Source: Ignavibacteriota bacterium
Lineage (GTDB): Bacteria > Bacteroidota > Ignavibacteria > UBA10030 > UBA6906
DNA: 46,073 nucleotides
Direction: 5' to 3'
NCBI GenBank assembly: GCA_003162635.1
Contig: PMNE01000109.1
Span: forward strand, 10,719 to 56,791
Of the stretch, positions 25,907 to 27,652 are shown piece by piece (the stretch's first letter is position 1; the number at the start of each line of letters is the position of its first letter). A program made the translations under genes and the position numbers. Under the pieces are notes generated by a model. That model did not search any database. It was not told where the DNA came from and was given only the letters and a program-made list of their open reading frames with translations.

Positions 25907-27652
25907 TCATGCCGGATCATTTTGCGGGAGAAAGTCACGAGCAGCACCCGGAACGCTGTATTCGTGGGGGCCCCGGTACACCTCCACTGGGCGGATGAAA
26001 TTCCCATGGGGAGGAGGAGATGAGGTCGCCCACTCAAGCGTTGTGGCATCCCATGGATTGTCACCGACCTTCTTTCCTTTTCGGATACTCACAAAGAAAT
26101 TGATGATGAACGGTATCTGAAAGATGGCGAGTGACCAGGCCGCGACCGACATCACCAGGTTCAGCGAAAGCACTCCCTGCGCGTGAGCATACTGGGCACC
26201 TCCGTCGTACAATCTCCGCGACACGCCGGCCAGCCCTTGGATGAACATCGGCATGAAGATCGTGTTGATGCAGATCAACGATCCCCAGAAGTGGATCTTC
26301 CCCAGCGTATCGTTCATCCGGCGCCCTGTTGCCTTCGGAAACCAGTAATAGACTCCGGCGAACAGTGCGAAAATCGATCCCGGGGCAACGATATAGTGGA
26401 AGTGTCCAATGACGTAGTACGTGTCGTGCAAGGGGATATCCGTCGGCGCCAATCCAAGCGGCAGGCCTGTCAATCCCCCGATGCCGAACATGGGGAGGAA
26501 TGCACAGGCGAACATCATCGGCGTCGTAAAGCGGATCGATCCGCCCCACAGCGAAACGATCAGCACGGCGAGAATCACGACCGAAGGGATGGAAATGATC
26601 ATCGTTGTCACTTGGAAGAAAGTACCGAGCGTCGTCCCCATCCCCGTAATGTACATGTGGTGCGCCCAGACGATAAACGACATGAACCCCAGAAAGAGCG
26701 TTGAATAGACGAGCGACCGGTAGCTCCAGAGCGGTTTCCGCGTGTTGTTTGCGATGATCTCGGCAACAATGCCCATGGCAGGCAGGATCAGCACATACAC
26801 TTCGGGGTGTGCGAGGAACCAGAAGAGATGCTGCCAAAGGAGAGGGCTCCCTCCCCCGCTTGCCTGCACCACCTGGCCGCTGACGACCAGCCCGCTCGGG
26901 AGAAAGAAGCTTGTCCCTGCAAGCCGGTCCATCAACTGGAGGCATGCCGCCGCTTCAAGGGGCGGAAAGGCAAGGAGGAGCAGGAAGGATGTGACAAGCT
27001 GGGCCCACACAAAAAACGGCAGCCGCATGAACGTCATCCCGGGAGCGCGGAGCTGCACGATGGTCACGATGAAGTTGATCGAACCGAGCAGCGACGAGGT
27101 AATGAGGAAGAACATCCCGATCAACCAGGCGGTCTGACCGATGGTGGCAATATCGGACAACGGCGGATATGACGTCCAGCCGGAATTTGCGGCCCCTCCG
27201 GGAAGAAGAAAACTCCCCAGCATGGTGACGCCGCCGGCAAAGTACACCCAATAGCTCATCATGTTGAGTTTTGGGAAGGCCATATCCGGCGCCCCGATCT
27301 GCAGCGGCATGACGAAGTTGCCGAACGCGCCAACGCCCAGCGGCACCACCCCGAGGAAGATCATGATCGTGCCGTGCATTGCCCCGAGTTGATTGTAGAA
27401 TTCGGGAAGCATGATCCCGTCGGGTGCGTTCGCCTCGCCGAGGAACTTGCCGATCAACGGAATCGGTTGCCCCGGGTATGCAAGCTGCCACCGCATGATC
27501 ATCATCAGCGTGAAGCCGAAGAGCAGGAACAGCAGGCTCGTGATCGCGTACTGAATGCCGATGGTCTTGTGGTCCTGCGAAAACAGATACGTCCGCCAGA
27601 ATCCCTGCGACTCATGGCCGGATCCGTGCTCGACAGAGGTCGACTGCGTCAC
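25907..27652 (-). CDS. coxA: Heme-copper oxygen reductase subunit I, A family (A1-like PEVY)
   Basis: DHKTIG, AMHG, APDMAFP, AHPEVY, WAHHM, HDTYYVIGHFHY, RR; GTG start inferred. Confidence 0.95.
   Translation of the reverse strand: MTQSTSVEHGSGHESQGFWRTYLFSQDHKTIGIQYAITSLLFLLFGFTLMMIMRWQLAYPGQPIPLIGKFLGEANAPDGIMLPEFYNQLGAMHGTIMIFLGVVPLGVGAFGNFVMPLQIGAPDMAFPKLNMMSYWVYFAGGVTMLGSFLLPGGAANSGWTSYPPLSDIATIGQTAWLIGMFFLITSSLLGSINFIVTIVQLRAPGMTFMRLPFFVWAQLVTSFLLLLAFPPLEAAACLQLMDRLAGTSFFLPSGLVVSGQVVQASGGGSPLLWQHLFWFLAHPEVYVLILPAMGIVAEIIANNTRKPLWSYRSLVYSTLFLGFMSFIVWAHHMYITGMGTTLGTFFQVTTMIISIPSVVILAVLIVSLWGGSIRFTTPMMFACAFLPMFGIGGLTGLPLGLAPTDIPLHDTYYVIGHFHYIVAPGSIFALFAGVYYWFPKATGRRMNDTLGKIHFWGSLICINTIFMPMFIQGLAGVSRRLYDGGAQYAHAQGVLSLNLVMSVAAWSLAIFQIPFIINFFVSIRKGKKVGDNPWDATTLEWATSSPPPHGNFIRPVEVYRGPHEYSVPGAARDFLPQNDPA

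Follow-up and report, generated by a model that had tools for sequence, protein, structure and literature searches.

The window analysed here is a stretch of 46,073 nucleotides from an Ignavibacteriota bacterium (assembly GCA_003162635.1, contig PMNE01000109.1), which carries on its minus strand a haem-copper oxidase operon with the gene order coxA-C-D-x-B, in contrast to the order coxB-A of canonical A1-type aa3 oxidases. The genes were assigned as follows:

25907..27652, minus strand: coxA, haem-copper oxidase subunit I, 581 amino acids from a probable GTG start at 27652
25309..25899, minus strand: coxC, a short subunit III of 196 amino acids (PF00510, E-value 8.6e-23, profile positions 77-255)
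24997..25296, minus strand: coxD, prokaryotic subunit IV (PF03626, E-value 8e-12)
24397..24660, minus strand: membrane protein of 87 amino acids with a CPLC motif, between coxD and coxB (no match in Pfam)
23429..24376, minus strand: coxB, subunit II with CuA site and without a cytochrome c domain, last cox gene of the operon (PF00116; alignment to 1qle_B / 1ar1_B; motif CSQLCGLGHYRM)
22407-23543, minus strand: ctaA, haem A synthesis (PF02628, E-value 3.1e-40)
21508-22410, minus strand: ctaB, haem O synthesis (PF01040, E-value 1.4e-56)

The operon is accompanied by genes for a Rieske/cytochrome b complex, a multihaem cytochrome and haem A synthesis, a cupredoxin-like protein is encoded nearby, and the genome additionally encodes a cbb3-type oxidase and cytochrome bd. 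All of the CuA residues of CoxB (H176, C279, C283, H287, M290) are present. In tblastn searches 17 of 80 loci, every one of them Lys-less in the sense described below, gave a match to the small CPLC protein in the corresponding place of the operon.

The minus-strand reading frame of coxA is open, and its translation includes QVTTMIISIPSVVILAVLIVSLWGGS. CoxA residues are numbered with the Val at 27634 as the first, the probable GTG start lying six codons upstream. The protein matched PF00115 with an E-value of 1.3e-137 and subunit I of Paracoccus denitrificans (1ar1_A) with an E-value of 2.5e-121 using HMMER, and it contains the A1-type HPEVY motif. Counts given for "the lineage" refer to 57 CoxA and 47 CoxB sequences of Lys-less enzymes related to that of the window, and "sisters" are 23 more distant loci. 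The six His ligands (87, 276, 325, 326, 411, 413) and the cross-link residue Tyr280 are present in CoxA and in 57/57 lineage members. For the D-channel, which we judged by four residues, N106, D117, N124 and E278 aligned with N113, D124, N131 and E278 of P. denitrificans and are conserved in 55, 54, 55 and 57 of the 57 lineage members, respectively. CoxA is thus an intact A-family oxidase, and the first-pass annotation, which had listed the GN, PDMAFP, N and HPEVY Glu elements of the D-channel, the cross-link Tyr and all six His ligands as intact, was correct on each of them. The fold and the subunits I, II with CuA, III and a small IV are common to this enzyme and to the canonical A1-type aa3 oxidases (P. 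denitrificans 1AR1/1QLE, Rhodobacter sphaeroides 1M56), as are the haem and CuB ligands, the cross-link Tyr, the HPEVY Glu and the Asp and Asn of the D-channel. CoxA nevertheless scored 593.1 bits with the NCBIfam equivalog TIGR02891 (CtaD_CoxA), below its curated cut-off of 670.75, and public records give the lineage proteins the generic label 'cbb3-type cytochrome c oxidase subunit I'.

The canonical K-channel is defined by Lys354, Thr351, Ser291 and Tyr280 in the available part of PMC3084760. Of these four residues only Tyr280 is kept in CoxA. The relevant features of subunit I, all on the minus strand, are:

26561..26612, minus strand: helix VIII segment, residues 342-358, VTTMIISIPSVVILAVL (translation and alignment to 1ar1_A)
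26573..26575, minus strand: Ile354, codon ATT, at the site of the K-channel Lys (P. denitrificans K354, R. sphaeroides K362; alignment)
26582..26584, minus strand: Ser351, codon TCG, at the site of P. denitrificans T351 (R. sphaeroides T359; alignment)
26591..26593, minus strand: Ser348, helix VIII, lineage-specific, on the CoxB-touching face in the model (Ser in 57/57 lineage members; Ala or Gly in 23/23 sisters)
26678..26680, minus strand: Ser319, helix VII, six residues ahead of the HH CuB ligands, lineage-specific (Ser in 57/57; Gly in 20/23 sisters)
26759..26764, minus strand: Ala291-Glu292, helix VI, at the site of P. denitrificans S291 (R. sphaeroides S299) and the His that follows it (alignment)

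HMMER aligned helix VIII without a gap ('tmiisipsvvilavlivslwgg' in CoxA, 'tmtiavptgikvfswiatmwgg' in P. denitrificans), and in helix VI 'giishv' of P. denitrificans reads 'givaei', replacing S291 by Ala. In a MAFFT alignment of 151 sequences, a gap and a compensating gap displaced the query's helix VIII by one column; this alignment was rejected since the TM...WGG stretches of the query and of the Paracoccus chain are equal in length and are aligned ungapped by HMMER, and helix VIII positions across representatives were counted from the conserved Pro. The codons and the ungapped alignment to 1ar1_A bear out the earlier assignment of Ser and Ile (ATT, 26573-26575) to the T359 and K362 equivalents; the loss of the Ser291 equivalent had been overlooked. 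No Lys occurs anywhere in helix VIII of the CoxA translation, and residues 352-355 are purely aliphatic. At site 354 the lineage has I in 42, L in 12 and V in 3 members (n=57), and at site 291 A in 37, G in 7, C in 4, T in 4 and S in 3 (n=57), compared with S in 23/23 sisters. Site 351 is Ser in 56/57 lineage members and likewise in 22/23 sisters, while site 356 is Thr or Ser in 56/57 lineage members and Ala in the window's CoxA. Two candidate features were discarded: Glu292 as a lineage-specific compensating residue, as this site is D, E or Q in Lys-containing sisters as well, and a 12-residue insert before helix VI as a lineage marker, as several Lys-containing sisters share it. Among the invariant or group-specific columns of the lineage's membrane helices no conserved Lys or Arg was found elsewhere.

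That the missing Lys reflects a sequencing error, an assembly error or a decaying gene can be given practically no chance. Nothing was found in favour of it, and it is refuted by the open reading frame, by the database homologues (79-100% identity), 0/120 of which have Lys at site 354, by the lineage, in which 57/57 members have I, L or V, and by contigs from RNA libraries, which have the same Ile354 codon. A 526-nt contig of one such library spans 26544-27065 without a difference, and contigs from RNA libraries cover the oxidase operon at at least 99% identity. The Lys is missing from all 56 loci that share at least 60% identity, and these Lys-less loci come from Acidobacteriota, Verrucomicrobiota, Planctomycetota, Marinimicrobia and Ignavibacteria; 22 of the 23 sister loci, at 51% identity or less, keep it. 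The absence of the Lys is thus natural and conserved in a discrete multi-phylum lineage, in agreement with the first-pass view of a natural Lys-less A-family oxidase and with none of the close homologues retaining K. The lineage tree was constructed using FastTree and has a midpoint root only. The co-occurrence of Lys loss with the gain of a subunit II Glu described below represents one or two evolutionary events, and its instances are not statistically independent.

The novelty that the first-pass annotation implied was, however, too high, because Lys-less family-A oxidases from other lineages have already been published. The available parts of two papers by Degli Esposti et al. (10.1101/2020.03.01.968255; Front Microbiol 2021, PMC8239418) describe Lys-less family-A COX1 of acidophilic iron oxidisers and their relatives, and in our literature searches these were the sole source of Lys-less family-A enzymes; the searches returned nothing on the present lineage or on a compensating subunit II Glu. 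As in the window, the Lys of the iron-oxidiser COX1 is replaced by a hydrophobic residue, e.g., Ile, the entrance Glu of COX2 is replaced and the D-channel is kept (available portions of both papers). The pattern of a hydrophobic residue 354 and a replaced entrance Glu fits the window's Ile354 and Val69, whereas 38/47 lineage CoxB keep the entrance Glu. Moreover, the iron-oxidiser COX1 is reported to be A2-type, and in PMC8239418 to have extra N-terminal TM helices, in contrast to the A1-type HPEVY Glu of the window's CoxA. In the main text of 10.1101/2020.03.01.968255, as far as available, none of the lineage's phyla is named; the supplementary tables and figures of both papers may list the lineage. 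The available text of PMC8239418 names some of these phyla solely in a table of CtaA types. The accessible portions of both papers contain no mention of a mid-membrane Glu in subunit II.

The helices that surround the K-channel include helix II of subunit II, and it is at a Glu of that helix that the channel begins (PMC6115622 and 10.1101/2022.04.13.488242, in the text available from each). Two CoxB residues are relevant here:

24170..24172, minus strand: CoxB Val69, at the site of the canonical K-channel entrance Glu (P. denitrificans E78, R. sphaeroides E101; alignment)
24149..24151, minus strand: CoxB Glu76, codon GAG, mid-membrane in TM2, seven residues past the canonical entrance-Glu site, replacing the Pro of the 'WTxxP' motif

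Canonical aa3 oxidases have the K-channel Lys, Thr and Ser together with an entrance Glu and a Pro at +7 in subunit II, whereas the window's enzyme has Ile, Ser and Ala together with Val and a buried Glu. The +7 site is acidic in 47/47 lineage CoxB (E in 46, D in 1) and in 0/23 Lys-containing sisters (P in 15, T in 7, V in 1), so that loss of the Lys and presence of the acidic residue strictly co-occur. Glu76 is the sole invariant residue inside TM2 of CoxB across 20 sequences with a mean column identity of 38%. The entrance Glu is present in 38/47 lineage CoxB and in 23/23 sisters, the window's CoxB (Val69) being among the exceptions. This mid-membrane acidic residue of the Lys-less lineage is new here.

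The CoxA-CoxB complex was modelled and reached an ipSAE of 0.90, compared with 0.00 for the best of three controls; among solved complexes 58 of 80 attain the mark applied, among mismatched pairs 2 of 110. At least 97% of contacts agreed between runs, with a partner pLDDT of at least 86. The pass may reflect the model's memory of similar, already solved complexes. The interface list includes residues 65, 68-69, 72-73, 76-77, 80 and 84-85 of CoxB and, in helix VIII of CoxA, residues 345, 348-349, 352-353, 356-357 and 359-360; Ile354 itself is absent from the list and its neighbours are included. In the model, Glu76 and position 69 would therefore lie on one CoxA-facing stripe beside the neighbours of Ile354. 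From the interface lists and helix periodicity, Glu76 would also contact the channel lumen.

The first-pass annotation had offered three options, namely an oxidase using only the D-channel, one whose proton path is rerouted, and one with an altered activity, for instance the reduction of peroxide. Under the last of these, the enzyme would be a slow O2 scavenger or a peroxidase-like or NO-reducing enzyme rather than a respiratory oxidase. The additional cbb3-type oxidase and cytochrome bd of the window's genome are compatible with such a role, as is the oxidative half-reaction that K-channel mutants of canonical enzymes retain (PMC6115622, available part). We regard it as improbable: in its Tyr, its three CuB His and its D-channel Glu the enzyme is a typical O2 reductase, and the operon context is that of a Rieske/cytochrome b complex, a multihaem cytochrome and haem A synthesis. 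In three genomes (G001, G002, G004), furthermore, the Lys-less oxidase is the sole PF00115 match, and cytochrome bd was not found. Some soil Acidobacteriota and marine Marinimicrobia yielded no terminal oxidase other than that of the lineage, and genomes with this oxidase alone include ones from Vicinamibacterales and Verrucomicrobiota. In the three genomes in which it is the sole terminal oxidase found, the enzyme must work. Given the canonical active site and these genomes, altered activity is unsupported. The conserved metal ligands, Tyr and D-channel, ctaA and ctaB in the operon, the sole-oxidase genomes and the RNA contigs together require that the enzyme be active.

A further comparison, which speaks for the rebuilt channel proposed below, is the sNOR family (Murali et al., 2024), whose K-channel region, according to the available text of PMC11214002, has a conserved Glu instead of the usual hydroxyl residue. 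The sNOR enzymes reduce nitric oxide, descend from the B-family and have a changed active site, whereas the window's enzyme has an O2 reductase site and carries its Glu on subunit II. The cc(o/b)o3 A2-type oxidase of Melioribacter roseus and Desulfovibrio vulgaris (PMC5492636) is an A-family enzyme of an Ignavibacteria-type organism located beside alternative complex III. It differs from the window's enzyme in clade and A2 type, and the A2-type representatives compared (YSHPAVY) keep the Lys.

Our best explanation, which falls just short of what we would call probable, is a working proton-pumping O2 reductase of the aa3 type whose K-type channel has been rebuilt using a Glu of subunit II. The classical K-channel of Lys, Thr and Ser on helices VIII and VI would have been dismantled in the lineage and a new channel formed at the interface of helix VIII and TM2 of subunit II. 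The carboxylate of Glu76 would lie on the helix face that also bears the usual entrance Glu, two helical turns further up, and assume the mid-channel protonatable role of the Lys, and the lineage-specific hydroxyls Ser348, Ser351, Thr/Ser356 and perhaps Ser319 would continue the path toward the active-site Tyr. We infer that protons would travel along this route; the orientation of Glu76 toward CoxA is predicted by the model. Of the three earlier options, the rerouted path is favoured by the comparative evidence, on account of the lineage-specific, near-invariant buried Glu in TM2 and the hydroxyls on the facing side of helix VIII. Other Lys-less lineages likewise put protonatable groups in this spot: in the Lys-less sister clade of P0135, helix VIII position 353 is Glu and CoxB has His at +7 (17/18) and Asp at +14, and other Lys-less representatives have E or D at 352-354, or Q or H at 354. 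Independent Lys-less clades include one with Lys changed to Gln, an archaeal one and one of Kofleriaceae type. The window's own enzyme speaks against the rebuilt channel in lacking the entrance Glu (Val69) and Thr/Ser356 (Ala356), both kept by most of the lineage. No biochemically characterised member of the lineage was found in the literature searches.

Buried Glu76 could instead be structural. With the K-region closed, both chemical and pumped protons would then be delivered through the D-channel, a possible but doubtful reading. It gains from the D-channel conservation given above (N106 55/57, D117 54/57, N124 55/57, E278 57/57), from the wholly aliphatic residues 352-355 and from the entrance Glu that is also missing in the window. 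However, an invariant charge in mid-membrane (E/D in 47/47) is difficult to ascribe to packing alone, and the entrance Glu of 38/47 lineage members would be pointless next to a closed channel. The available part of PMC6115622 further states that mutation of the Lys in studied A-type enzymes drastically slows reduction of the oxidised site, and in those enzymes the D-channel is therefore no substitute.

The B-family ba3 oxidase of Thermus thermophilus has, like the window's enzyme, no channel Lys, and its K-type path starts at a subunit II Glu. In ba3 the entrance of this path is Glu15 of subunit II. The two differ in that ba3 has no D-channel and a Thr at the Lys site, whereas the window's D-channel is intact and the site is Ile; with a K-region of Ile, Ser and Ala instead of the Thr, Ser and Tyr of B-family K-channels, and only marginal phmmer matches to ba3 chains (E-values 5e-5 to 6e-4), CoxA does not belong to that family. 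A ba3-like path of hydroxyls and water within subunit I (Ser348, Ser351, Thr/Ser356, Ser319) could still replace the Lys, leaving Glu76 an accessory role, as the lineage-specific hydroxyls (S348 57/57, S319 57/57, T/S356 56/57) and the function of B-type enzymes with Thr, Ser and Tyr replacing Lys, Thr and Ser (PMC3084760, available part) would suggest. We consider this unlikely: the Lys site is Ile, Leu or Val instead of Thr, the Ser291 site is mostly Ala or Gly instead of Tyr, and the invariant subunit II Glu would be left unexplained.

For annotation the lineage matters in that its proteins score under the CtaD equivalog cut-off and carry a generic label. The K-channel lysine is regarded as indispensable in A-family oxidases, the mitochondrial enzyme included. 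Here a widespread natural Lys-less lineage, often with this enzyme as the sole oxidase, has a precisely placed candidate substitute on another subunit. A shade more tentatively than the rebuilt channel itself, we propose that a buried glutamate of subunit II has taken the place, in trans, of the 'essential' lysine, which would give an inter-subunit channel with a key group of opposite charge. If true, Lys as such would be unnecessary for A-family catalysis, and the lineage would provide a natural system for testing the role of the mid-channel group in gating versus relay, and for asking whether the path of the reductive phase needs a lysine, any protonatable group, or water and hydroxyls alone.

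The A-family oxidase is encoded by an operon comprising, in transcription order, genes for an 868-aa multihaem cytochrome c and a 248-aa cupredoxin-like protein, coxA, coxC, coxD, the gene for an 87-aa membrane protein, coxB, ctaA and ctaB, with a Rieske / cytochrome b6-like / subunit IV set immediately upstream.

Features of the window (coordinates, strand, description)
43723-45800, minus: cbb3-type oxidase (CcoN 44337-45800, CcoO 43723-44373)
32945-33649, minus: Rieske protein, upstream of the oxidase genes
32103-32894, minus: cytochrome b6-like protein, upstream of the oxidase genes
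31188-32072, minus: subunit IV-like protein, upstream of the oxidase genes
28560-31166, minus: 868-aa multihaem cytochrome c, upstream of the oxidase genes
27802-28548, minus: 248-aa protein directly before coxA, with a C-terminal CarboxypepD_reg-like domain and an HNVH...CEVHGWM motif
25907-27652, minus: coxA, haem-copper oxidase subunit I; probable GTG start at 27652, giving 581 aa as in the 581-aa database form
25309-25899, minus: coxC, short (196 aa), matching COX3 profile positions 77-255 of 258
24397-24660, minus: 87-aa predicted membrane protein with a CPLC motif, between coxD and coxB, without a Pfam match

CoxA was matched by the COX1 Pfam profile (E-value 1.3e-137), and its closest solved relative was subunit I of the Paracoccus denitrificans aa3 oxidase (1ar1_A; E-value 2.5e-121). 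Residues were numbered from the Val at 27634 and the analyses were run on 25907-27634. The start of coxA is uncertain (27650-27680, minus strand): near-identical database forms are 590 aa long, but their start position corresponds to no start codon in the window. Strain differences were seen at the 5' end of the gene, where one RNA-library contig carries a 4-nt insertion behind 27672 and a G>T change at 27676.

The gapless HMMER alignment of helix VIII with the Paracoccus chain ('tmiisipsvvilavlivslwgg' against 'tmtiavptgikvfswiatmwgg') confirmed the first-pass annotation, which had read the Lys and Thr equivalents as Ile and Ser. The position of P. denitrificans K354 (K362 in Rhodobacter sphaeroides) is Ile354 (codon ATT, 26573-26575), that of T351 is Ser351 and that of S291 in helix VI is Ala291; three of the four residues by which Sousa et al. 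(PMC3084760) describe the A-type K-channel (Lys354, Thr351, Ser291, Tyr280) are altered. CoxA is otherwise canonical, and the D-channel, cross-link Tyr and His ligands were found intact, as had been claimed, both in the alignment to the Paracoccus chain and in the lineage columns (His ligands, Tyr280, Glu278 in HPEVY, Asp117 and two D-channel Asn all present).

Local error or decay had been proposed in the event that close homologues all retained Lys, which was not the case: none of 120 database proteins (79-100% identity) has Lys at site 354. In a locus set built from one genome per species (80 loci retained out of 600 candidates), all 56 usable loci at 60-79% identity carry Ile, Leu or Val at this site (I 42, L 12, V 3; n = 57 including the query), Lys is present in 22 of the 23 usable loci at 44-51% identity (the sisters), and no loci fall between 51 and 60%. 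By record titles the lineage includes Vicinamibacteria and other Acidobacteriota, Verrucomicrobiota, Planctomycetota, Marinimicrobia / Neomarinimicrobiota, Ignavibacteriaceae, Hydrogenedentota and Thermodesulfobacteriota. Within the window's own phylum, 13 of 201 sampled genomes had a CoxA match of at least 76% identity, 12 of them from the window's family or order, and the next-best matches reached at most 50%. In the phylogeny called for to delimit the lysine-less group (FastTree, 113 rows), the lineage formed a clade with local support of 100. The missing Lys is thus a lineage-defining feature and not an error, and the probability of an artefact is negligible.

Lysine loss is also recurrent in the A-family, since at least six changes between 'Lys' and 'no Lys' are required on the 113-row tree and, of the 126 representative A-family rows closest to the query, Lys is present in 77 and absent from 49, the latter including the query itself and a misaligned fragment (P0230). 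This recurrence agrees with published reports. Degli Esposti et al. described family-A COX1 proteins, from acidophilic iron oxidisers and some further bacteria, that carry residues such as Ile instead of K354 and whose COX2 partner also has E78 replaced; they regarded these as rare A-type enzymes lacking a functional K-channel (10.1101/2020.03.01.968255). In a 2021 paper of the same authors (PMC8239418), K-channel loss is said to have occurred repeatedly in archaeal family-A enzymes, and a supplementary table lists about twenty subclades of bacterial COX1, among which the lineage may already be catalogued. None of the lineage's phyla is named in the main text of the preprint, and PMC8239418 names some of them solely in a table of CtaA types. 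The Melioribacter oxidase belongs to a separate, A2-type clade (PMC5492636).

Several observations indicate that the enzyme is used. The window's genome (98% complete) encodes only one further haem-copper oxidase, the cbb3-type enzyme of the same window, and also cytochrome bd. In three of five other lineage genomes searched (two Vicinamibacterales and one Marinimicrobia, of unstated completeness, two being on contigs of 1.7 and 4.1 Mb), the lysine-less CoxA was the sole PF00115 match, and the same three gave no hit to PF01654 (cytochrome bd); the remaining two genomes add a cbb3-like gene and a Lys-containing A-type enzyme, respectively. Contigs from wetland and peat RNA libraries covered most of a 5.1-kb stretch with at least 99% identity (29, 26, 29 and 20 of 30 bins had depth), and a 526-nt contig spanned the Ile codon with zero differences; these contigs establish presence in RNA libraries and fall short of proof of transcription, because DNA can occur in such libraries. 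An altered or low-rate function, of which peroxide reduction had been suggested as an example, is considered very unlikely.

We searched the alignment columns for a new conserved charged residue within CoxA of the lineage and found none. Three hydroxyl residues do distinguish the lineage: Ser348 (57/57; Ala or Gly in the sisters), Thr/Ser356 (56/57, the single exception being Ala in the window; Phe in the sisters) and Ser319 in helix VII (57/57; Gly in 20 of 23 sisters). The acidic residue specific to the lineage is found in subunit II, which in the window has a complete CuA motif and lacks a cytochrome c domain. In canonical and sister CoxB proteins TM2 starts with L-E-x-x-W-T-x-x-P, the Glu of which forms the K-channel entrance (P. 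denitrificans E78, R. sphaeroides E101, bovine Glu62). At the Pro position, seven residues after this Glu, lineage CoxB has Glu (46) or Asp (1; n = 47, leaving out 11 lysine-less loci too short for coxB), and the sisters have no acidic residue (0/23; Pro 15, Thr 7, Val 1). In the window this residue is Glu76, the sole invariant TM2 residue in a 20-sequence CoxB alignment with a mean column identity of 38%, and, since seven residues make two helical turns, it lies on the same helix face as the entrance position, where 38 of the 47 lineage CoxB proteins retain Glu and the window has Val69. The cupredoxin domain of the window's CoxB (gene 23429-24376, minus strand) also carries an insert of about 75 residues (residues about 205-275) before the CuA Cys motif, which among 20 aligned orthologues was common only to the compared loci L008 and L068.

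The position of Glu76 was examined in a CoxA-CoxB complex predicted from an own alignment of each subunit. The model reached an ipSAE of 0.90 (best of three controls 0.00), a mark that 58 of 80 complexes with solved structures and 2 of 110 mismatched pairs attained, with at least 97% contact agreement between runs and a partner pLDDT of at least 86; this pass may reflect recall of similar solved complexes, and the model was used for interface lists alone, subunit binding being textbook knowledge. The lists comprise CoxB residues 65, 68-69, 72-73, 76-77, 80 and 84-85 and, in CoxA helix VIII, residues 345, 348-349, 352-353, 356-357 and 359-360, with no mid-membrane CoxA residues outside this helix. 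Glu76 is accordingly predicted at mid-membrane on the TM2 stripe facing CoxA, opposite the helix VIII face with Ser348, Val352/353 and position 356 and next to Ile354. Ile354 itself is absent from the interface list, and we infer the contact of Glu76 with the channel lumen. The modelled geometry fits published descriptions in which the K-channel starts at the Glu of subunit II helix II and is ringed by subunit I helices VIII, IX and X and subunit II helix II (PMC6115622; 10.1101/2022.04.13.488242).

We tentatively propose, at somewhat less than even confidence, that the enzyme is an O2-reducing aa3 oxidase pumping via the D-channel, in which the reductive-phase protons that canonically pass Lys/Thr/Ser would enter along the interface of helix VIII and subunit II TM2 and reach Tyr280 by way of the buried Glu and the hydroxyls specific to the lineage. 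An enzyme working with the intact D-channel only appears unlikely, and a ba3-like path of hydroxyls and water, in which the same hydroxyls would suffice and the Glu would be accessory, less likely still. The interpretation of the first-pass annotation is partly supported: among its options, the rerouted path gains support from the lineage-specific CoxB Glu and CoxA hydroxyls. With Val69 and Ala356 the window's enzyme is a slightly stripped member of the lineage, so that the lower part of the proposed path is weaker for this organism.

Other lysine-less clades were compared, and the nearest points to a similar kind of replacement. In the nearest (the clade of representative P0135; L091-L126, metagenome contigs), helix VIII of most members (at least 71% identity) reads 'ISVPIAEMxF', which places Glu at 353, one before the old Lys site and a CoxB-facing residue in the window's model. 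CoxB TM2 of this clade reads 'LKRWITIPHALVLVCDV', with Lys in place of the entrance Glu, His at +7 (17 of 18) and Asp at +14; of these, only the Asp occurs in a remoter subgroup (50-58% identity, coxB present in 8). Search patterns derived from P0135 include 'HHQ' and 'GADDMV' stretches. Other lysine-less representatives have Gln, His or Glu at 354, Glu/Asp at 352-353, or Glu at 344, and about six have nothing obvious in place of Lys. The shared theme is that another protonatable or polar group sits at the former Lys site or next to it. Because the clades are small in number and some are related to each other, the observation amounts to a pattern without statistical weight. Further variants occur among representatives P0163-P0270. 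One large clade consists of proteins of about 840 aa in which subunits I and III are fused, with Gln (once His) where Lys would be; an archaeal-type clade has hydrophobic residues at this position and begins helix VIII with 'TE'; and in P0172 and P0267, which likewise lack Lys, Trp replaces the HPEVY Glu.

The surrounding genes were also compared. The Rieske, b6-like, subunit IV-like and multihaem cytochrome set also lies 5' of coxA in several related loci (e.g., L008, L019 and L058). The 248-aa protein is a weak match to a blue (type 1) copper domain protein (5fc9_A; E-value 0.014), and tblastn placed relatives of it beside lysine-less as well as Lys-containing oxidase operons. It probably donates electrons to this oxidase, whose subunit II lacks a cytochrome c domain. 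By tblastn the 87-aa CPLC protein occupies the corresponding position in 17 of 80 loci, every one lysine-less, and could be an extra subunit or assembly factor specific to the lineage. CoxC lacks the first two helices of canonical subunit III, as only profile positions 77-255 were matched. The window also holds genes resembling alternative complex III (35648-42208, minus strand) for a 983-aa fused molybdopterin-like / FeS protein and a 496-aa NrfD/DsrP-like membrane protein; with these and the cbb3-type oxidase it constitutes a respiratory island with two quinol-oxidising complexes and two oxidases.

A-family oxidases without the lysine have, as such, already been published, and a conserved Glu in the K-channel region has been described for sNOR by Murali et al. 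(PMC11214002); phrase and term searches of the literature found no description of a compensating subunit II Glu. For oxidase specialists the interest lies in a lineage that is widespread and often has this enzyme as its sole oxidase, and in a concrete hypothesis that can be tested by mutation.
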